64,000 nt of DNA from a bacterium (GTDB lineage Bacteria; Patescibacteriota; Minisyncoccia; Phycocordibacterales; UBA6899): the NCBI GenBank assembly GCA_021851895.1, contig JAJZQJ010000005.1, positions 14,572-78,571 of the forward strand, given 5' to 3'. A model generated the notes under the pieces. It made no database searches. It saw nothing but the letters and a program-made list of their open reading frames with translations, and was not told the DNA's origin. A program made the translations under genes and the position numbers. Numbering within the stretch: position 1 is the stretch's first letter; every line of letters begins with the position of its first letter. Positions 12,579 through 62,621 of this stretch are shown piece after piece.

Positions 12579-13721
12579 TTATGAGGTCCAGTTATAAAGC
12601 ATGATCGAAAGATCGGCGATGTTCACTTTTCCATCGTGATTAAGATCACCGACGGGATCGGACTTACCGAACCGGAAGAGCAACATCGAAAAGTCTATCA
12701 TGTTCACCTTACCATCGCCGTTGATATCTCCATTACTCGTTTGATCAGTCACATTACTATTTCCGACGAAGATGTTGAGCGCGGTACCATTTCCACTCTT
12801 TTGAGGAACCGTACCAGTCGCTGCGATCAGCTCGAGATATGGGAGGATCTGATGATAGATCTCTGGCGTCATTGCTCCCGTCGAAAGCTTTGCGTCCCAA
12901 CTTCCATCATCCTTCGAAGTAGCTGTTTCGACTGGCGCACTCGACCTATCGAGAAGCAATTGCACATGCGCGCGCGGCGCGGTCGTACCATCAAGCATGA
13001 TATCGGATCCAGGTGAAACCTTCTGAAGGAGTGCTCTGATGGTCGGAGGAAGGAAGACATTACCAACATTCGTAACGGCGTTCTGAGTGACCTGAAAAGT
13101 CGTCGTATAGGTGATCGATCTTATCTTCTTTGCATCCTCTGCCCAAAATCCGAATGTCGTCGGACCAGGCGTTGCATTGGCGACGTTATAAGTGAAATCA
13201 GCATTCGAATCTGACTGTGCGATACCGAGGAGCTGTCCATCCTTCAAGATCTGCACACGTGCATTCGGATAGGCCTTTCCCGCAAAGATCACCTGCGTCT
13301 GCGCGCGCATCGGAACACCGCCCGATCCCCCACCACTACCGGAAGGTGTCGGCGGAGGCTGCGGCGGTGTTGTCGATGAAATAGGTGCTTCTTTCTGTTT
13401 ACATGCGTCTGTGCAAAAATTATTACCATCGGGGACGCACTCTTCTCCGTAATACGGTTTCAAAACGCCATCTCCGCAGTATGGTCCCCAAGAGCGACAG
13501 TTCGTCGCGCAATGACGAGAATCACTACTCGTCGCATATGCCCCATCGTTAAAACCAAGACCGAAGTCACACACCTCACCACTATCGACGATACCGTTAT
13601 TACAAATAGAAACAGCAACCGTTGATGTCGCGATCACCATATTGAGCTCAGCGGAAGCATTATACGCACTTGATAATAACACAAACACAAGTAGAGCAAC
13701 GAAAAACGCGACACGCTCCAT
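12579..13721 (-). CDS. Secreted Cys-rich protein with a Pro-rich linker and C-terminal double dockerin
   Basis: Start chosen at MERVAFFVALL (signal peptide); the ORF track starts 17 codons earlier. C-terminus has DINGDGKVNMIDFSMLL and DLNHDGKVNIADLSIMLY, classic dockerin type I repeats. Confidence 0.5.
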   Translation of the reverse strand: MERVAFFVALLVFVLLSSAYNASAELNMVIATSTVAVSICNNGIVDSGEVCDFGLGFNDGAYATSSDSRHCATNCRSWGPYCGDGVLKPYYGEECVPDGNNFCTDACKQKEAPISSTTPPQPPPTPSGSGGGSGGVPMRAQTQVIFAGKAYPNARVQILKDGQLLGIAQSDSNADFTYNVANATPGPTTFGFWAEDAKKIRSITYTTTFQVTQNAVTNVGNVFLPPTIRALLQKVSPGSDIMLDGTTAPRAHVQLLLDRSSAPVETATSKDDGSWDAKLSTGAMTPEIYHQILPYLELIAATGTVPQKSGNGTALNIFVGNSNVTDQTSNGDINGDGKVNMIDFSMLLFRFGKSDPVGDLNHDGKVNIADLSIMLYNWTS

Positions 13722-30522: not shown

Positions 30523-30545
30523 CGCTGCACCATAACACAAGATGA

Positions 30546-30580
30546 GGGAATAGGGAATAGGGTATAGGGAATAGGGAAAT
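30546..30580. repeat. Heptamer tandem array (GGGAATA)x5, family A
   Basis: gggaata gggaata gggtata gggaata gggaaat. Exact inverted partner at 30679-30713. Confidence 0.85.
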
Positions 30581-30678
30581 TCAAAGAATGTTACAGAACT
30601 ATAATTTTTCACTAATGAACTCCAAAGAAGTCAATGATAGTGTTTCCTCACGACACCTGCACTTTCAAGCATTTTCAG

Positions 30679-30713
30679 CCCTATACCCTATTCCCTATTC
30701 CCTATTCCCTGGT
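30679..30713. repeat. Heptamer tandem array (CCCTATT)x5, complement of family A
   Basis: ccctata ccctatt ccctatt ccctatt ccctggt. Ends at a TATTAT hexamer 6 nt before the hisS ATG. Confidence 0.85.
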
Positions 30714-47279: not shown

Positions 47280-49472
47280 TTAATTAACTACAGGGGTCGA
47301 AGTTGCGTCAGACTCAGTGCGTATGACGGGCGGAGTTGCGACGACGATCTCAGTGTTCGATACCGGCGTCTTTGGTTGGTTACGTGTATTGTCAACGAGT
47401 CTACGCGCAAGTGCAGTGAGGTCGAAGGTTTGTGCACCATCGACGCTACTGCCCACCATACGCATTTGCCCATTGGCATCCTCTTCATTCCACACGAGTG
47501 CAACTCTTGGAGATTCGCTCTTCACTCCTGGTTTCGAAACGCGATGAGCGACACCTGTTGTGATGTCGTATGCGAAGACCTGCCACACACCATCTTCGAT
47601 CGCCTGCCACGTGATCGTATCACCAGAGACATTCGGGAACATATCCGGTGCGTTATTCGCAGTAATGCGCTTCACCAACCAGTCACCGTTCACTCCTACT
47701 GCACGATGATCAGCAGACAACGCATCATCAGGTATTTTCTCTGGAGATGGAGCAGCAGTGAATATTTCCCAATTTCCATCTACCCATGCTTGCCATGCGA
47801 TTCTTCCGCCGTACACTTTGGGATTGAAATTATTATCTCCGCTAGTGAGATACTTCACCTTTGGTACTCCAACATCATTCACGTGCGCATATGCGATTTG
47901 CCACTTACCATTCTGCATTGATTGCCATACGAGCGTATCGCCAGATGGATCAAGAACAGGGAAAACGTTGTCATCCGTTCCATGCGTAAGCTGTATGGTG
48001 CTTGCGCCACGCACAAGGAAAATCTGTTTATTTCCCGTCGACGGATCCGGCTGGACAACCACGGAAATCGAGCGCTCGTTCGCGATCACTGGCGAACCGA
48101 ACGACTGTGCATCAGGGATACAGTAATAACCCGTTCCATCGAGATTCTTACAACCCCGATAGACCTCTTGCTCCACTTCCCTACGCACCTCTTGTTTCAC
48201 CTCATCACGTACTTCATTACGTAACTCACCGCGCATCTCGTTGCGCAACCGCGCACGAATCGCATCGATGTTACCGATGACCTCATCAGGTGCGACATCG
48301 AGGATCGGCGTCTCCCCGTCGGCTGTTGTTGATGCAACAGTCTCTGTTTGCATGGTCTCATCAACGACGATCGTCGTAGATGCAGTACTTGACGATGCGG
48401 TGTCGATGATCACAGGAGGTGGCGTCTCGATAGCGCCCTCTGACGATGAGGTCGAAGAATCTGATGATGAGGTATCCGACAGTGCCGCACCGCCACCCGA
48501 TGAGACAGGTTGAGTAACCGGCGCTGGATCAGCGACTTCCTGGGTTGTACCCGAAGCGTCACTCGAAGAAGCGGGGGTCTCTGTGGTTGGCGTATCCGAA
48601 GCGAGCTTGTCTGTTGTACTTCCAGAATCTACGACCGGAAGCGAATCGGTTGCCGAGCTCGCTACTGGTGCAGGTGTCGGATCGGATTGCGTAATCGCTG
48701 CAACGTCGTTGCCACCACCCTGCGCTACCGACTGCGGAGCACCAGCATTTGCGTCTGCAGTCGGTGCAGTCTGGACATCTTGCGATGTTGGAGAATCTGC
48801 AGCATTAACGGTTTGAGTATCTTGCGCTGCCGCTGCATCAGCAGAAGATGGCGCAGCTGATTGACTTACGTCAGAGGACACAGAAGGAGCCGCAACGGCA
48901 GCAACATTCGAACTTACGTCAGATTCTGGTGCAGAAGCTGGCTGAGTGTTGTCTGCAACGGAAGTGCTCGGTGCATCACTGGATCCAACGATCGCTGCGA
49001 CATCACTTGCGACACGATCAGCAAGTGGCGCCTCATCTGCGTATGCAGGAGCGAGCGGAGCAATGAGCATTGCAGGTATGAGTAACCATGCGAAGAAACG
49101 CGCAAGAGGAGATGCGGGTTTGACTGCTGCAACACGAACATCACTACCCGAGAGAGCTGCGTCGATAACTCTTCGCAGAGCGCCTTCATCTTTTCGCGCG
49201 TGCGCGTATGCGTGCGCGCTCGCGCGCGCCTGCGCGTGCGCACGCGCGCGCGTAACAGAAAAACTTCGAACGGTCAAATCAGCGGATTTTGCATCACGCG
49301 AAAGGTTTGTCCCCCCACCTGTTACTGCAGTTACAGACGCTTTTCTTTGGGAAAGCAGAATAGCCCCACCCGTCTTCGGGGAGGAGGTGTGCTGCACAAG
49401 CCTTGTTGGTGGCGGTTTTATACCACTACGCGGCAAGTGAACAATACTGTTTTCCGGTTCGTATTTCATCAT
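47280..49472 (-). CDS. Membrane-anchored protein with a low-complexity stalk and C-terminal TolB/WD40-like beta-propeller
   Basis: Repeated DxxPxxSGDxxxWQ blades at the C-terminus; one TM after a ~130-aa cytoplasmic N-terminus. An alternating-CG tract at 49196-49260 lies inside the coding sequence. Confidence 0.55.
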   Translation of the reverse strand: MMKYEPENSIVHLPRSGIKPPPTRLVQHTSSPKTGGAILLSQRKASVTAVTGGGTNLSRDAKSADLTVRSFSVTRARAHAQARASAHAYAHARKDEGALRRVIDAALSGSDVRVAAVKPASPLARFFAWLLIPAMLIAPLAPAYADEAPLADRVASDVAAIVGSSDAPSTSVADNTQPASAPESDVSSNVAAVAAPSVSSDVSQSAAPSSADAAAAQDTQTVNAADSPTSQDVQTAPTADANAGAPQSVAQGGGNDVAAITQSDPTPAPVASSATDSLPVVDSGSTTDKLASDTPTTETPASSSDASGTTQEVADPAPVTQPVSSGGGAALSDTSSSDSSTSSSEGAIETPPPVIIDTASSSTASTTIVVDETMQTETVASTTADGETPILDVAPDEVIGNIDAIRARLRNEMRGELRNEVRDEVKQEVRREVEQEVYRGCKNLDGTGYYCIPDAQSFGSPVIANERSISVVVQPDPSTGNKQIFLVRGASTIQLTHGTDDNVFPVLDPSGDTLVWQSMQNGKWQIAYAHVNDVGVPKVKYLTSGDNNFNPKVYGGRIAWQAWVDGNWEIFTAAPSPEKIPDDALSADHRAVGVNGDWLVKRITANNAPDMFPNVSGDTITWQAIEDGVWQVFAYDITTGVAHRVSKPGVKSESPRVALVWNEEDANGQMRMVGSSVDGAQTFDLTALARRLVDNTRNQPKTPVSNTEIVVATPPVIRTESDATSTPVVN

Positions 49473-52525: not shown

Positions 52526-54487
52526 CTACGAACGCACATCAAATCGAGCATCTGCTGCGCGAAGCGCTGCGACCACCTTCTCAGCTACGGTATTCGCCTC
52601 ATCATCAGAAAGTGTTCTCTCATTACTTTGCAGCGTCATACGAAATGCAAAGCTCTTCTTCCCCTCCTCAGGTTTCTCGAAAACATCAAAGAGTGCAAGA
52701 TCGATGACAAGCGGCCCCATAACAGAGCGAATGATCTCATCGATAGCTCCGACACGAATCTCCATCGGAACCCAGAGGGCAACATCGCGCACTACCTTTG
52801 GATACTTGCTTGGAGCCACATAGCGATACTGCTCCTCTTTGGAGACAAGCTGCACTAGTACATCAAAGTCGATCTCAAAACCCTGCACGTGGAGCACACC
52901 GATCAAAGTTTTGCCTACGTAGATCTCTGCTGCAACATCACCGCCGCATTCCTTATACGTGAACCCCTTGAGGCCACATGCTCTTGCGAGCGCGTCGAGT
53001 ACACCTTTAAGTTGCACGAAATCATTCTTCACTTCTGCTTGCTTGCGCTTTTGGAATCCGATAGCGGCCGCGAATGAACGATTCTCGGAAACCTTTCCAT
53101 CGTTCTTGCCAAAGACCGATCCAAATTCAAAGATGCGTACTACATCCTTGTATTTTAAATTCTCTGCCAACGATTCACGAAGTCCATGCGATAGATTATT
53201 GCGGAGAGCCTTGCGATCCGAGGCCATCGGATTGCGGAGCTCCACTTCCCCGAGATTGTTGAACGAATAAGTATACACCTCAGAAAATCCTGAAGCGAGC
53301 ATGACCTCGCGAGCTTTATCACGAAGTGTCCAAAAAAGATTCTGCGTAGGAGCAATAAGTGGCTCCAAAGGAAGTGTACCAACAAGTCCTTCAAGACCGA
53401 CAAGACGACAGACTTCCTCGGCGAGATCTTCCTTGATTGTGATATCCAAACGCTCATGCGGAACAACGATCGTCCAAACACTGTCCTCCCCCTTGCCCTT
53501 CACCTTCGAAGAGAATCCGAGACGCTTCCAGATACGAGATACCTCTGCAGCATCATAATGTGCACCGACGATACGTTCGATCTGTGCGAGTGAAACCGAG
53601 ACCGTACGCTGCTTTGGAAGCGCAGCCCCTTTTATCACAGGAATACCAGGAATGACTTCTTTACCTCCTGCGATGTCGATGATGATACCTGCAACCATAG
53701 CGAGCGCCTCATCGACGTAATATGGCGTCATGCCCTGCTCAAAGCGCTTCGCTGCATCGGTGCGGAGGTTGTAGCGCTGCGCAGCTTTACGCACCGTCGC
53801 ACCATCGAAGTTTGCAGACTCAAGGACTATAGTCTTTGTATCTTTATTGACCTCTGCTATCGTTCCCCCTTTCACACCTGCGACCGCAAGCGGTGACTGC
53901 TTATCTGCAATGACAAGCGTGCCAACATCGAGAGCTATCTGCTTCCCGTCAAGCGTTGTGATCTGCTCGCCCTCCTTTGATGCGCGGACGACGATCTTCT
54001 TTCCGGAGATCTTCGCATAGTCAAATGCGTGCAGCGGTTGCCCCATCATGTAAAGCACATAATTGGTCGCGTCAACGACATTATTGATCGAGCGCGCCCC
54101 AAGTGTCTCCAAAGCATCCTTTAACCATTTTGGTGAAGGACCTACAGAGATATTATCGAGAACGAGTGCAGCATAGCGTACAGCTCGTTTGTCTGCAATT
54201 TGTACATCGATCTTATGAGCTTTTGCGCTACCCTTTTGGAGCTTTACGGCAGGAGTCTTCTTAAGCGGGATATTTAGCACAGCGGAAACCTCCTTCGCCA
54301 CACCCCGATGTGAAAGACAATCATGTGCACGGTTGGGAAGCACTTTCACATCAATGAGCGTATCGCCCTTTTTCGCTTCGATCCCTTCAATTTCAAAACT
54401 ATGCGCCGTAAGCTTCGCCGCAATGATGTCCGCCTTTGGAAGCGGCTTATCGAAATATGTTTGGAGTAATTTTCGAGAGATAAGCAT
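52526..54487 (-). CDS. pheT: Phenylalanyl-tRNA synthetase beta subunit (short form)
   Basis: B3/B4, FDX-ACB and C-terminal anticodon-binding-like domains. 653 aa, shorter than the canonical ~800 aa. Confidence 0.85.
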   Translation of the reverse strand: MLISRKLLQTYFDKPLPKADIIAAKLTAHSFEIEGIEAKKGDTLIDVKVLPNRAHDCLSHRGVAKEVSAVLNIPLKKTPAVKLQKGSAKAHKIDVQIADKRAVRYAALVLDNISVGPSPKWLKDALETLGARSINNVVDATNYVLYMMGQPLHAFDYAKISGKKIVVRASKEGEQITTLDGKQIALDVGTLVIADKQSPLAVAGVKGGTIAEVNKDTKTIVLESANFDGATVRKAAQRYNLRTDAAKRFEQGMTPYYVDEALAMVAGIIIDIAGGKEVIPGIPVIKGAALPKQRTVSVSLAQIERIVGAHYDAAEVSRIWKRLGFSSKVKGKGEDSVWTIVVPHERLDITIKEDLAEEVCRLVGLEGLVGTLPLEPLIAPTQNLFWTLRDKAREVMLASGFSEVYTYSFNNLGEVELRNPMASDRKALRNNLSHGLRESLAENLKYKDVVRIFEFGSVFGKNDGKVSENRSFAAAIGFQKRKQAEVKNDFVQLKGVLDALARACGLKGFTYKECGGDVAAEIYVGKTLIGVLHVQGFEIDFDVLVQLVSKEEQYRYVAPSKYPKVVRDVALWVPMEIRVGAIDEIIRSVMGPLVIDLALFDVFEKPEEGKKSFAFRMTLQSNERTLSDDEANTVAEKVVAALRAADARFDVRS

Positions 54488-54489
54488 AA

Positions 54490-54517
54490 GTAAGAAGTAA
54501 GAAGTAAGAAGTAAGAA
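54490..54517. repeat. Heptamer tandem array (GTAAGAA)x4, family B, abutting the pheT ATG
   Basis: cat-aa-gtaagaa gtaagaa gtaagaa gtaagaa ggttgaa. Inverted partner at 54926-54957. Confidence 0.85.
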
Positions 54518-54537
54518 GGTTGAAATACCTATCTTTC

Positions 54538-54888
54538 TTACTCATTCGGATAAGTTCCACAAAGCGAATAAAGCATTTTGGCGAGCTCGCCAAGAAGGGA
54601 TTCTAGTTCTGAAATATTCTCAACATAGCCTAGGCGATGGGCAATCTCGAGCTGAGTTTCAACTTCAGCCACCGACCCAAGCGCAATCGAATAAAATCTC
54701 TGTCTATCTTTTTGAGTATTTCGCCTATAGCCTTCTGCAATATTTGATGGCGCTGAAATCGCAGCTCTCTGAATTTGAGAACTCAAAGCATATTGCTCAT
54801 TTTTTGGAAATGTACTTGTCAGTTTATACACAAGCACAACCATATTCATGGACTTCTGCCACACGATCAAATCTTTATAACCATTCAT
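54538..54888 (-). CDS. Four-helix-bundle protein of the 23S rRNA intervening-sequence protein family (PF05635/TIGR02436-like)
   Basis: DLIVWQKSMNMVVLVYKLTSTFPKNEQYALSSQIQRAAISAPSNIAEGYRR...FYSIALGSVAEVETQLEIAHRLGY matches the hallmark pattern of this family. Flanked by inverted heptamer arrays. Confidence 0.75.
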   Translation of the reverse strand: MNGYKDLIVWQKSMNMVVLVYKLTSTFPKNEQYALSSQIQRAAISAPSNIAEGYRRNTQKDRQRFYSIALGSVAEVETQLEIAHRLGYVENISELESLLGELAKMLYSLCGTYPNE

Positions 54889-54902
54889 AATATTGCTTTT
54901 GA

Positions 54903-54957
54903 GAGTGAAGTAGTTGTGAGAATTTCCTTCCCACTTCTCACTTCTTACTTCTCACTA
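54903..54957. repeat. Heptamer array (ACTTCTC/ACTTCTT)x3-4 plus inward GTGAGAA units, complement of family B, beginning at the pheS stop codon
   Basis: gtgaagtagttgtgagaa-tttccttccc-acttctc acttctt acttctc act. On the minus transcript this reads TAG-TGAGAAG-TAAGAAG-TGAGAAG-TGGGAAG. Confidence 0.8.
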
Positions 54958-55773
54958 TATTGTATCGAACTGATCCACGAGGCGAAGGTCGCCATTGTAA
55001 AGTGTGCGAATGTCGGGAATTCCCCACTTCAACATGACGAAACGATCGACACCGCCACCGAAAGCAAAGCCCTGGTACTTATTCGGATCAATACCGCCAG
55101 CGCGAAGCACGTCAGGATGCACCATACCCGCACCCATCACTTCGATCCACTTTTCCACCTTTCCCTTATCATCTGTCCAGCCGATGTCGATTTCAACTGA
55201 TGGCTCGGTGAATGGGAAATATGATGGGCGAAAACGCACCATCATCGGTCGTCCGAAGAGGCGTGCAAAAAAGAGTTCGAGCATACCTTTCAAGTTCGCA
55301 AGCGAAACATCTTTACCGATCATGAGACCTTCGAACTGATGGAATTGCGCCTCGTGGGTGGCATCTGTTGCTTCATAGCGAAACACCTTACCCGGTGCAA
55401 TGATGCGGATCGGCGCACCCTGCTTCTCCATATGACGTATCTGGACCGGTGATGTATGCGTACGCAAAAGAAGACGCTCGAGTCCGCGAGTATCTTTCAA
55501 CCAGAACGTATCCCACATATCACGTGCGGGGTGATCTTTCGGAATATTGAGCGCATCAAAGTTGTAGTGTTCGGTCTCGATCTCTGGGCCATCTGCGATA
55601 CTGAAGCCCATAGAGCCGAATATGCTGTTGATGTCGCGCATCATGATCGAGACAGGATGCATATGCCCGCGCTCTCCCCCCTTTCCAGGGAGCGTTGCGT
55701 CAAGGCCAATTTGCTCTCGTGAATACATAGTGAATTCATCATAGCACACGGAGAAACATGCGTAAAATGGCAT
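54955..55773 (-). CDS. pheS: Phenylalanyl-tRNA synthetase alpha subunit (short form, 272 aa)
   Basis: Class II core (FRPSYFPFTEPS, GAGMVHP) is present. Start set at MPFYACF (55773) because the upstream extension overlaps a conserved plus-strand paralog gene. The N-terminal coiled-coil extension is absent. Confidence 0.75.
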   Translation of the reverse strand: MPFYACFSVCYDEFTMYSREQIGLDATLPGKGGERGHMHPVSIMMRDINSIFGSMGFSIADGPEIETEHYNFDALNIPKDHPARDMWDTFWLKDTRGLERLLLRTHTSPVQIRHMEKQGAPIRIIAPGKVFRYEATDATHEAQFHQFEGLMIGKDVSLANLKGMLELFFARLFGRPMMVRFRPSYFPFTEPSVEIDIGWTDDKGKVEKWIEVMGAGMVHPDVLRAGGIDPNKYQGFAFGGGVDRFVMLKWGIPDIRTLYNGDLRLVDQFDTI

Positions 55774-55848
55774 TTTTTCAACGTTTCCTTGATGTGCAAG
55801 ACTTACCATGCTAGCCTGACTGTAGAGAAAGTTCACCAGAAAGGACCC

Positions 55849-56403
55849 ATGATCAGCACCCCTTCCCCGCGCCGCATTGTCAAAGTCTCCCTCGACTCGA
55901 TCGTCAGTTTCGACAACGAGGCAATACTCGCTGCGAAGAATAGCGACGAAGCGTGTCGCATCGCGGAACACCTCCTCGCTCGCCTCGAAAAGATACGAGC
56001 ACCAAGACGTTACTTCGAGCTCGCACTCAAGAACAGCCTGATGAAGAGACCGGAAATGCAGAAGCGCCACTACTTCATCATGCATGACCGAAGCGTACTC
56101 AAGGTCGCAGTCCGGTTCGGGAGGCACGCCACCACGAAAACGCGCGAGAAGCTGATCACTATCGCAGGCTACTTCGGGATGTATCGTCTTCTTAAAGAGG
56201 TCATCTCTGATTTGCGTAATACCGTGATGACGAAGCAGGAATTCCTTGCAATGACCGTCCATTTCAGCGTGTCGAGCGAAACGATGGATGAGCACGCGCT
56301 CGGAATGATTCGCGATGCTGAAATCGCACACGGTGAAGCATTCGCTAAAACGATCGAGGACGCTCTCGCTACTCGATACCAAGAATGGAACGAACTTCCA
56401 TGA
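55849..56403 (+). CDS. Hypothetical helical protein, paralog 1 of a tandem pair
   Basis: RBS agaaagga. 184 aa, alignable with the next gene (GRHATTKTREKLITIAGYFGMYRLLKEV versus GKHANMEIKERIVLVARRFRDYKLLKLTV). Confidence 0.45.
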   Translation: MISTPSPRRIVKVSLDSIVSFDNEAILAAKNSDEACRIAEHLLARLEKIRAPRRYFELALKNSLMKRPEMQKRHYFIMHDRSVLKVAVRFGRHATTKTREKLITIAGYFGMYRLLKEVISDLRNTVMTKQEFLAMTVHFSVSSETMDEHALGMIRDAEIAHGEAFAKTIEDALATRYQEWNELP

Positions 56404-56413
56404 CATGTCCTTG

Positions 56414-56436
56414 CCGCACGATCGTGCGGTTTTTTC
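56414..56436 (+). terminator. Rho-independent terminator
   Basis: ccgcacgatcgtgcgg followed by tttttt. A TTGCAA-17-TATGGT promoter follows. Confidence 0.55.
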
Positions 56437-56509
56437 TTGCAAAGTTTTATGTCTCATGTTATGGTATCCCTCCCGAGATAGTTCTTTAACCACCACAAGG
56501 AGCCCATAC

Positions 56510-57079
56510 ATGGGAAGCTCTCTTCGCGCCAATAGAAGCGGCCTTATGCCGCTACGCACACACCTCGACTTCGACATGAAGTCGATTCTCGAGATGAGTC
56601 CGAGGATCGGACTCGCCCTCGCTCAGCACACCATGCGAAAGCTCGAGATCATGGAGGCGCCCGACTGGGCCTTCGAACGATTCGCAGAGCACTGCCTCCT
56701 TGAGCTCCCGGAGTTCCAATCCGGCTGGATCATGCAGGCACAATCCAAGGACTTCTTCATGCTTCTCCTTTCGTGTGGAAAACATGCGAATATGGAGATC
56801 AAGGAGAGGATCGTCCTCGTCGCGCGCAGGTTCCGAGACTACAAGCTGCTCAAGCTGACCGTGGGAACACTGCTCGTAAGGCCGCTCTCCCCTTTCGAAT
56901 TCGAAGAGGCGGCTGAGCTTCTCCATATCACGAGCCGTGATTTCAGTGAGACCGCGAGCCTCATCACGATCGATGCGTTCAAGACACATGGCCTTGAGCT
57001 CCGATCGAAGATCAAGGAGATCCTCAAGAAAAAGGCCGACGTCGAACTCCTCGAGGAAACCGCCATTGCGGCGGTGTGA
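56510..57079 (+). CDS. Hypothetical helical protein, paralog 2
   Basis: Perfect RBS aaggag 7 nt upstream, own promoter and terminator. Confidence 0.5.
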   Translation: MGSSLRANRSGLMPLRTHLDFDMKSILEMSPRIGLALAQHTMRKLEIMEAPDWAFERFAEHCLLELPEFQSGWIMQAQSKDFFMLLLSCGKHANMEIKERIVLVARRFRDYKLLKLTVGTLLVRPLSPFEFEEAAELLHITSRDFSETASLITIDAFKTHGLELRSKIKEILKKKADVELLEETAIAAV

Positions 57080-57467: not shown

Positions 57468-57486
57468 TTCAAGCCTGACAGGTGGC
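57468..57486 (+). repeat. Inverted 19-nt copy of the tRNA-Thr T-arm and acceptor 3' strand
   Basis: ttcaagcctgacaggtggc is the exact reverse complement of 57529-57547. The two copies flank the tRNA terminator hairpin. Confidence 0.6.
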
Positions 57487-57493
57487 CCAAAAA

Positions 57494-57523
57494 CAAAAAC
57501 CCCCTTGCGGGGGTTTTATGTTT
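57494..57523 (-). terminator. Rho-independent terminator of tRNA-Thr
   Basis: aaaaccccc-ttgc-gggggtttt followed by atgttttt. The hairpin is symmetric. Confidence 0.6.
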
Positions 57524-57524
57524 T

Positions 57525-57600
57525 TGGAGCCACCTGTCAGGCTTGAACTGACGACCTACGGTTTACAAAACCGTTGCTCTACCAACTGAGCTAAGGTGGC
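57525..57600 (-). tRNA. tRNA-Thr (anticodon UGU), CCA encoded
   Basis: Reverse complement reads GCCACCTTAGCTCAGTTGGTAGAGCAACGGTTTTGTAAACCGTAGGTCGTCAGTTCAAGCCTGACAGGTGGCTCCA. 7-bp acceptor, D-arm GCTC/GAGC, anticodon loop TTTGTAA, T-loop TTCAAGC. Confidence 0.85.
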
Positions 57601-62450: not shown

Positions 62451-62451
62451 A

Positions 62452-62493
62452 GTGAGAAGTGAGAAGTGAGAAGTGAGAAGTGAGAAGTAAGCC
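62452..62493. repeat. Heptamer tandem array (GTGAGAA)x5 + GTAAGCC, family B, abutting the prfA ATG
   Basis: On the minus transcript this reads (TTCTCAC)x5 followed by T and the ATG. Confidence 0.85.
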
Positions 62494-62562
62494 CACACCG
62501 CACTTATCACTTTATTCTGTCACAATTGAGTGAAAAATAAAAAGGAACAGAAAATAAGTTCC

Positions 62563-62621
62563 GGGTATTGGGTATTTCCCTATTCCCTATTCCCTATTCC
62601 CTATTCCCTTCTTATTACTTC
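62563..62621. repeat. Composite heptamer array (GGGTATT)x2 + (TATTCCC)x5 + TTCTTAT-TACTTCT, covering the rpmE stop codon
   Basis: On the minus transcript: AAG-AAG-TAA-TAAGAAG-(GGAATAG)x4-GGAAATACCCAATACCC. A-family and B-family units are adjacent. Confidence 0.8.

Follow-up and report, generated by a model that had tools for sequence, protein, structure and literature searches.

A PF05635 gene between inverted heptamer arrays at the pheS-pheT junction of a Patescibacteriota bacterium: a candidate protein-operon variant of the rRNA intervening sequence element

We report a gene cassette lodged between pheS and pheT of a bacterium of the Patescibacteriota, in which a gene of the PF05635 family is enclosed by two arrays of tandem heptamers that are inverted with respect to each other. 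The cassette occupies minus-strand positions 54488 to 54954 within the 64,000-nt stretch of contig JAJZQJ010000005.1 that was analyzed here as a whole (the window), and it is probably a self-contained, horizontally acquired element lying in the sense orientation of its host operon. In our census of related genes, co-directional junctions of protein-coding genes are the usual habitat of this gene-plus-array package. The explanation that we favor for the whole, with modest confidence, is that the acquired cassette belongs to a widespread class, that the intervening sequences (IVSs) of ribosomal RNA (rRNA) which bear an open reading frame (ORF) of this family would be the rRNA-resident members of that class, and that the arrays may work as a stem in the transcript.

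The cassette and its insertion site

Read along the operon, the pheS stop codon TAG (54955-54957) is followed at the adjacent base by the upstream (5') arm, TGAGAAG TAAGAAG TGAGAAG TGGGAAG plus one G (54926-54954; Tandem Repeats Finder (TRF) period 7, 4.3 copies). Its four full heptamers span 54954-54927, and this succession of stop codon and heptamers (54957-54927) is just as an earlier note on this DNA, made from the letters alone, had given it. The arm is purine-rich and free of C, and direct reading places its TGA, TAA and TGA triplets in all three frames. A leader of 37 nt (54889-54925) separates it from the start codon of the enclosed gene (54538-54888, minus strand), and inspection of that leader revealed no Shine-Dalgarno-like motif adjoining the ATG. 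Beyond the stop codon of the gene, a 19-nt spacer (54519-54537) leads to the downstream (3') arm, which consists of (CTTCTTA)x4 plus CTT (54488-54518; TRF period 7, 4.4 copies, 100% matches). The four full units lie at 54518-54491 and are followed by the CTT of a partial fifth unit and then by the pheT ATG (54485-54487). The earlier note was thus right about the four units, while its placing of the array 2 nt before the ATG holds only if the unit is phased as TTCTTAC; otherwise the gap is 3 nt. The 3' arm is free of G, contains zero stops in any frame and abuts the pheT ATG, so that the array on the stop side closes all three frames and the array on the start side is open, as had been claimed.

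The enclosed gene encodes a 116-aa four-helix-bundle protein of PF05635/TIGR02436 ('IVP', 'S23p'). The family assignment, already made in the earlier note, is confirmed by a score of 131.9 bits against PF05635, '23S rRNA-intervening sequence protein' (E 1.3e-38; cutoff 33.8), covering positions 1-105 of 106, and of 127.1 bits against TIGR02436, 'four helix bundle protein' (cutoff 24). The protein also matches Protein Data Bank (PDB) entry 2GSC, Xanthomonas XCC0516, at E 4.8e-24. From the homologue structures 2GSC and 2RLD, in each of which the PDB entry holds five chains, we infer a four-helix-bundle fold and a pentameric assembly for IVP. The GC content of the gene is 40%, and that of its third codon positions is 36% as against 49-56% in pheT and pheS. 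The public annotation begins IVP at Met14 (103 aa); in the homologue alignment the conserved N-terminus (MNGYKDLIVWQK) starts at the first ATG (window 54850-54888). Both flanking genes are recognizable: PheS matches the PF01409 class II core at E 3e-98, and pheT is complete, encoding a 653-aa PheT with B3_4, B5, CLM and FDX-ACB domains. The pheS gene is annotated with 518 aa and its longest ORF has 540 aa, of which only the last ~257 aa are PheS-like (window 54955-56577); the upstream portion of this ORF overlaps two plausible plus-strand genes.

The two arms, taken as 54926-54956 and 54489-54519, are 31 nt each, 87% complementary and 406 nt apart. On the operon strand they pair through 27 Watson-Crick and 4 G.U pairs with zero other mismatches, in agreement with the earlier estimate of about 28 bp including G.U pairs. 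The expected long stem is also borne out by prediction. When the 506 nt of 54470-54975(-) were folded, the arm stem closed both the minimum free energy and the centroid structures, at -155.5 kcal/mol compared with -119.8 +/- 6.1 for shuffles (z -5.86), which shows the stem to be thermodynamically plausible within the folding model. An Rfam scan of the window returned one tRNA and no rRNA.

Searches with 21-nt array patterns at up to 3 mismatches found 8 occurrences of each against 0.00 expected in shuffles, and the junction was seen in two independent assemblies (NCBI GCA_027330905.1 and the Logan contig of SRR13189623); on these two grounds chance and assembly artefact were rejected. The Logan contig (L001, 1250 nt), a short-read assembly, stops 44 nt past the IVP gene, within the 3' heptamer array. 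A GGG tract is present in one unit only of the TGAGAAG/TAAGAAG arm, which thereby lacks the four or more G-tracts of a G-quadruplex (G4); since there is no series of G-tracts, G4 formation is impossible for the TGAGAAG/CTTCTTA arms.

The pheS neighborhoods were collected from 80 Paceibacterota species, and pheS and pheT were located in each. The closest relative, L006 (PheS 90% identical), has an empty site that reads TAG-TT-ATG: ATCTAG-TT-ATGCTTATCTCT in L006 corresponds to ATATAG, 466 nt and TTATGCTTATCTCT in the window. In the junction alignment, GATACTATC TAG TT ATG CTTATCTCT of L006 stands against GATACAATA TAG, 466 nt, TT ATG CTTATCTCT of the window, and we therefore conclude that a spacer of 2 nt received an insert of 466 nt. 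Other empty sites have overlapping stop and start codons (L005) or a spacer of 25 nt (L003). The insertion asserted in the earlier note, for which it had proposed this very comparison, is upheld. The junction of pheS and pheT in this lineage carries no Shine-Dalgarno motif, and the two genes are evidently translationally coupled. With a GC content of 38.8% in a window of 49.8%, the cassette is foreign in composition; its distribution is sporadic, and it bears signs of horizontal acquisition. Its sole ORF is that of the 116-aa bundle protein, and a PADLOC search for defense systems gave zero matches.

In the Paceibacterota the junction of pheS and pheT is a hot spot for insertions, with more than 60 nt present there in about one third of 78 species (for example L004 6724-7152, L012 2562-2996, L013 10720-10819, L057 10804-10989, L065 10723-12490 and L082 7281-8378). 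The contents include HIT-like ORFs (L012, with an HVHVHLMP motif), small acidic ORFs, HExxH ORFs within inserts of 1.1-1.8 kb, of which the one in L065 is bracketed by AAAGTCCAT-type arrays, and long ORF-less hairpins reaching right up to the stop and start codons.

Recurrence of the gene-plus-array package and its ORF-less relatives

A metagenome scan with the homologue alignment yielded 80 loci at 45-58% identity, and the flanks of 80 IVP genes were examined in the kind of census that the earlier note had suggested. A flanking inverted repeat was counted at a score of at least 14, shuffle controls reaching 8-14. By this measure inverted repeats flank 44 of the 80 IVP genes (55%) and 2 (2%) of the 110 other genes that served as controls on these contigs, so the association holds well beyond the window; inverted repeats and/or tandem arrays accompany 63 of the 80. 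Both scoring controls are ordinary genes with an ORF-less hairpin on each side, built from the heptamer family of that contig's cassette. Array periods are 7 (46 arrays), 14 (20), 8 (13) and 16 (6), with hardly any others, and the median number of units is 4.4 in the left array and 4.1 in the right. G exceeds C in the upstream arm of 39 of the 44 cassettes; G makes up 32% and C 12% of the left arrays, of which the right arrays are the mirror image.

The position of the package is equally regular. Neighbors are co-directional upstream in 61 of 70 cases, downstream in 58 of 69 and on both sides in 44 of 60. The left array starts at a median of 3 nt from the stop codon of the upstream gene, and in one third of cases overlaps and therefore supplies that stop; in half of the cases the right array begins 0-6 nt past the IVP stop. 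The layout of the class runs from a stop-bearing, G/purine-rich arm at the upstream stop, through a leader of 10-60 nt and the IVP ORF, to a C-rich arm that ends a short way ahead of the next start codon. The idea that an rRNA element had been transplanted into an mRNA as a curiosity, with which the earlier note had accounted for the cassette, does not survive this census, in which junctions of protein genes are the normal site; no rRNA context was found in the 15 related metagenome loci scanned for it.

Three other PF05635 genes occur in the 80 Paceibacterota loci, all with flanking inverted arms of tandem units. One, in L057, a member of the candidate phyla radiation (CPR), lies at the gatC-gatA junction with arms ATGAGACATGCGACATG and CATGTCTCATGTCTCAT, and the other two (L023 and L037) are enclosed by two tRNA-Met genes; ORF-less hairpins of their arm family also stand between adjacent tRNAs there. 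Such ORF-less hairpins use the heptamer family of their genome's IVP cassette; their orientation relative to host genes was 7 against 4, a sample too small to interpret. The package was also present on 21 of 34 viral contigs, two of which share the TGAGAAG/TGGGAAG unit of the pheS-pheT cassette.

The orthologue of XCC0516, the protein of the solved crystal structure that defines the PF05635 family, sits in Xanthomonas between accB and accC. The array GGGAATC GGGAGTG GAGAATC GGGAATC starts 6 nt past the accB stop, and a complementary array abuts the accC ATG. These arms are 30 nt long and 87% complementary, and the predicted RNA fold of accB-XCC0516-accC closes on them (z -8.7). The heptamer array even codes for the first 11 residues of XCC0516 (MENRESAKRPH, with a GTG start; L197 1945-1990), and array slippage would therefore alter or frameshift the N-terminus.

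Arms and protein co-diverge. Heptamer units are wholly different between distant cassettes, and the two arms of each cassette remain complementary. Protein identity correlates with unit similarity (Spearman p 1.5e-6), the unit distance being 1.7-2.4 for pairs at least 60% identical and 3.3 for the remainder. The close pairs L107/L161 and L086/L103 have orthologous flanking genes that are only 58-77% identical, which implies long vertical retention, and the unit consensus of L107/L161 has undergone compensating changes in both arms. Relocation is implied instead by the close pairs L100/L113, L106/L120, L097/L135 and L119/L158, whose flanking genes are unrelated; cassette pairs of this sort are 66-83% identical in protein and similar in their heptamers. 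Arm mismatches tend to recur at a fixed unit position, position 2 in the pheS-pheT cassette and position 7 in Xanthomonas, and this recurrence argues for homogenization within arrays by slippage.

By Tandem Repeats Finder and a period scan, the period-7 arrays of the 64 kb number exactly six and fall into three pairs. The pair around IVP was described in the earlier note, whose account of the window holds for the cassette and missed the other two pairs, both ORF-less hairpins. At 30545-30710, (AGGGAAT)x4.9 and (CCCTATT)x4.6 fill the divergent engB/hisS intergenic region (z -5.95), with arms of up to 32 nt that are 94% complementary, a 100-nt spacer, and a variant unit, AGGGTAT/CCCTATA, mirrored across the arms. 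At 62451-62609 on the minus strand, between the rpmE stop (62617-62615) and the prfA ATG (62450-62448), lie (GGGAATA)x5 and (CTTCTCA)x5, which are mutually non-complementary. The fold of this region (z -5.34) consists of two adjacent hairpins, each made of an intact array and a decayed partner: in one, (GGGAAUA)x5 pairs with a decayed U-rich arm, and in the other a decayed AAGUGAU-type arm pairs with (CUUCUCA)x5, which abuts the prfA ATG. The AGGGAAT arrays at 30545 and 62576 possess the G-tracts of a G-quadruplex.

The ORF-less hairpins of the window share the two heptamer families of the cassette and are probably its non-autonomous relatives. Descent of their spacers from decayed IVP genes, or by deletion from the pheS-pheT cassette, was considered and rejected, there being no protein or DNA similarity, and no tRNA or Rfam family was found in the spacers. 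The only similarity between the two spacers is the 10-mer ATTTTTCACT (30604-30613 and 62529-62538); its orientation follows hisS and prfA, respectively, and it could be part of a promoter. Both array families of the window recur at a different locus in L006, where a composite just 3' of pheT (12786-13125) contains heptamer arrays of ATGATTT, AGGGTAT/GGGGTAA and AAGAA type, holds the GTCATTGCGACGGCCCCGA motif twice, and is bounded by a 25-nt period-7 inverted repeat.

Two other repeats of the window were observed. A GC-rich repeat of alternating purines and pyrimidines (CGCGCGTGCGCGTATGCGTGCGCGC...) at 49195-49252, intergenic and near the end of gyrB, is internally palindromic, Z-DNA-like and very unlike the remaining window. 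The other, an inverted repeat of 37 nt at 57468-57547 with 81% complementarity and a loop of 6 nt, overlaps with its right arm the 3' part of a tRNA-Thr gene (57525-57600, minus strand). Part of the tRNA may have been duplicated there, as in an attachment site, or the repeat may be a terminator that makes use of tRNA sequence.

Known systems and rival explanations

The closest known counterpart of the cassette is the ORF-bearing IVS of 23S rRNA in Coxiella burnetii and Leptospira. The Coxiella element is 428-444 nt long and closes on a terminal stem of 28 bp, and its loop carries an S23p (PF05635) ORF; on the 5' side of the stem lie two to three GACAGAT heptamers and a degenerate one, in a copy number that varies between strains, and RNase III cuts in vitro midway along the stem, at the heptamers (PMC4990558). 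Both elements measure ~430-470 nt, close on a terminal stem of ~28-31 bp and carry in the loop a PF05635 ORF in sense orientation; both have tandem heptamers on the 5' side of the stem (GACAGAT in Coxiella, four units per side at pheS-pheT), are sporadically distributed and are lower in GC than their hosts. What differs is the location, which is the tip of an rRNA helix (23S h9/h25/h45 or 16S) for the IVS and a 2-nt spacer between protein genes for the cassette. Cleavage by RNase III has been demonstrated in Coxiella, and for the cassette it is predicted by analogy. The earlier statement that the architecture is exactly that of ribosomal IVSs stands for stem, loop ORF, size, low GC and heptamers, and fails for residence in rRNA. 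The most fitting place for the cassette is as a variant of the IVS/PF05635 element that lives in a protein operon, has the other structural features tested and lacks the defining rRNA location. ORFs of PF05635 have also been described in rRNA insertions of CPR bacteria (PMC11270868).

Two sets of published heptamer repeats resemble the arrays. The GGGAATC repeats of Xanthomonas, preferentially of four units and lying between aligned ORFs, place their G-rich strand up to 50 bp past stop codons and their C-rich strand before start codons; 70-75 convergent pairs can form stem-loops, most repeats are transcribed, and they were interpreted as G-quadruplex elements with no mention of an enclosed PF05635 gene (Rehm et al. 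2015, PMC4692102). The GGGNATC repeats of Xanthomonas and Nostoc thus agree with the cassette in period, in a number of about four units, and in the placing of their G-rich and C-rich strands between aligned ORFs. The AGGGAAT arrays of the window have a nearly identical unit, and exactly these repeats flank XCC0516 between accB and accC; the arms at pheS-pheT differ in being incapable of forming G4. In Beggiatoaceae, cyanobacteria and Bacteroidetes, TAACTGA repeats lie just 5' of start codons and carry stops in all frames, and a protein that binds them has been sought (MacGregor 2015, PMC4679880). They are likewise intergenic tandem heptamers within a few nt of starts, with all-frame stops in one orientation and rarely a Shine-Dalgarno motif nearby, and they belong to phyla in which PF05635 genes also abound; they are direct repeats that present the stop-bearing orientation before starts, whereas the cassette presents the stop-free complement there and forms inverted pairs around a gene. 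The cyanobacterial STRR heptamers are tandem intergenic heptamers similar to the TAACTGA repeats.

Miniature inverted-repeat transposable elements and REP-like (repetitive extragenic palindrome) sequences share with the cassettes inverted termini, intergenic location, the coexistence of ORF-bearing and ORF-less copies in one genome and genome-specific families. The cassettes differ in having neither a transposase nor a target-site duplication, in termini that are tandem arrays evolving by slippage, and in ORF-less copies whose internal sequences are unrelated to the cassette.

Several observations weigh against the favored explanation of an acquired cassette that works through an RNA stem. Over the 44 cassettes, arm mismatches comprise 31 of the sense-strand G.U type, 31 of the A.C type and 73 others, and because the G.U and A.C types balance, the four G.U pairs at pheS-pheT are not evidence for selection at the RNA level. 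The Xanthomonas stem has a non-wobble mismatch at every seventh position; since there is no excess of G.U and Xanthomonas mismatches recur in this way, strict RNA pairing is not what is conserved. At engB/hisS, if the promoters lie in the spacer, each mRNA would probably carry one arm only. Scans of the three array sites for promoter and terminator consensus found neither: no sigma-70-type promoter was detected at the cassette or the two ORF-less sites with a consensus that may differ from that of CPR promoters, and the single weak terminator-like hairpin lies inside the ORF. No transposase, integrase, recombinase or reverse transcriptase that would explain mobility was found in or beside the cassette (no reverse transcriptase within 10 kb), and comparison of the filled with the empty site gave no target-site duplication at the TAG/TT junction.

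These points lend weight to a DNA-level element, in which the arrays are terminal inverted repeats or single-stranded DNA hairpins for a recombination machinery of the host or of the element, and the RNA stem is incidental. The lack of bias toward RNA-compatible wobble and the Xanthomonas mismatches at every seventh base are what such an element would leave, as are close relatives in unrelated contexts (the four relocated pairs named above), the co-divergence of arms and ORF as a unit, low GC and cassettes on phage contigs. The absence of a transposase, integrase or reverse transcriptase and of a target-site duplication tells against this account as well, as do the strong preference for sense orientation in host operons and the processing of the homologous rRNA element as RNA within its heptamer stem (PMC4990558). 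We regard a purely DNA-level element as rather unlikely; a DNA-level role in spread is nevertheless a serious rival, compatible with the favored explanation, on account of the mismatch balance, the Xanthomonas mismatches and the one-armed mRNAs at engB/hisS.

The arrays might instead be host regulatory repeats of the kind known from Xanthomonas, cyanobacteria and Beggiatoaceae, serving as G-quadruplexes or in translational control and present before IVP arrived as a passenger. ORF-less pairs of the same units in the window would fit, together with the published placement of four-unit repeats within 50 bp past stops in sense and before starts in antisense (PMC4692102), the TAACTGA repeats immediately 5' of start codons (PMC4679880) and the capacity of the AGGGAAT arrays for G4. 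We nonetheless consider this improbable, because the empty pheS-pheT site of L006 is free of arrays, arrays accompany 55% of IVP genes and 2% of controls, arm sequence follows IVP phylogeny, and the arms of the cassette cannot form G4.

Far less credible still is that IVP is the Avd protein of a diversity-generating retroelement (DGR) and the repeats are debris of its template and variable regions (TR/VR). Avd is a distant relative of IVP with the same four-helix-bundle fold, and bAvd, which is pentameric, binds both nucleic acid and reverse transcriptase. IVP does give weak matches to bAvd PF22296 (22.5 bits), NF033474 (23.7 bits) and the PHROG 'Avd protein of DGR' (E 9e-8); the first two are far under their hidden Markov model cutoffs of 40 and 80 bits, there is no reverse transcriptase within 10 kb, and the repeats are 7-nt tandem arrays and not a TR/VR pair. 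On these three grounds the Avd identity was rejected.

Proposed working and significance

We propose that the cassette, which appears to have no promoter of its own, is co-transcribed with pheST; its reliance on read-through from the host operon is suggested by the sense bias together with the lack of a promoter consensus. In the transcript the arms would pair with each other, and the resulting helix of ~31 bp would loop out the cassette. By analogy with the Coxiella IVS, this helix is a likely substrate of RNase III, and a cut without ligation would yield separate pheS and pheT RNAs; because the cassette lies between two protein-coding genes, excision would separate cistrons and would not fragment an rRNA held together by the ribosome. 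If left uncut, the helix may hold the pheS stop beside the pheT start. The 5' arm would end any reading frame that enters the cassette, and the 3' arm would offer the downstream gene a leader that is stop-free, G-free and unstructured, so that the two arms together may limit harm to the flanking frames. This candidate mechanism of processing and coupling is plausible. As speculation, the IVP protein may be a trans-acting partner of the heptamer arrays, given five chains in the homologue crystal and 4-5 units in the arrays.

A broader view, which we entertain only tentatively and doubt more than we believe, is that IVP cassettes are a large, unrecognized class of operon invaders in bacteria and phages, whose arms let RNase III excise or bypass them and whose pentameric protein binds the 4-5 units and mediates processing and/or spread. 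Under this view the ORF-less repeats (the Xanthomonas 'G4' repeats, TAACTGA, possibly STRR, and the two hairpin sites of the window, at 30.5 and 62.5 kb) would be non-autonomous progeny or cis-sites, and rRNA IVSs would be a special case and not the prototype.

To our knowledge, it is only within DGRs that a function is known for PF05635/TIGR02436, a very large family. The intervening sequences of rRNA have stood as an unexplained peculiarity since 1990, and the heptamer repeats of intergenic regions have so far been explained separately, as G-quadruplexes, translational control or phase variation. The census joins the protein family, the rRNA IVSs and the heptamer repeats through one repeatable architecture, and suggests that the element ranges much more widely, with rRNA intervening sequences as only one of its habitats. 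As far as we could find, the widespread package of gene and heptamer arms has not been described as such: our search of the full-text literature, which did not cover subscription journals, where a prior description is possible, brought up no report that connects PF05635 genes beyond rRNA with inverted heptamer arrays on their flanks. The arrays break short-read assemblies and may be under-represented in metagenome bins; they can also pass for CRISPR arrays, and such confusion may lie behind the 'CRISPR association' reported for the family, a 23S_rRNA_IVP gene having been found between cmr3 and cmr2 and the family taken as CRISPR-associated (Zhang and Ye, PMC3936711).

The usual home of the cassette lies at junctions of co-transcribed protein genes that are often essential and tightly coupled. 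The Xanthomonas accB-XCC0516-accC operon, for which a crystal structure and public RNA-seq data exist, offers a tractable case. If the stem is processed, the cassette would be a bacterial mRNA insertion that is removed at the RNA level without ligation, and this would provide a testable route by which an element becomes neutral inside an operon. If the broader view is true, the element would be harmless both within essential coupled operons (pheST, accBC and gatCA) and within rRNA.

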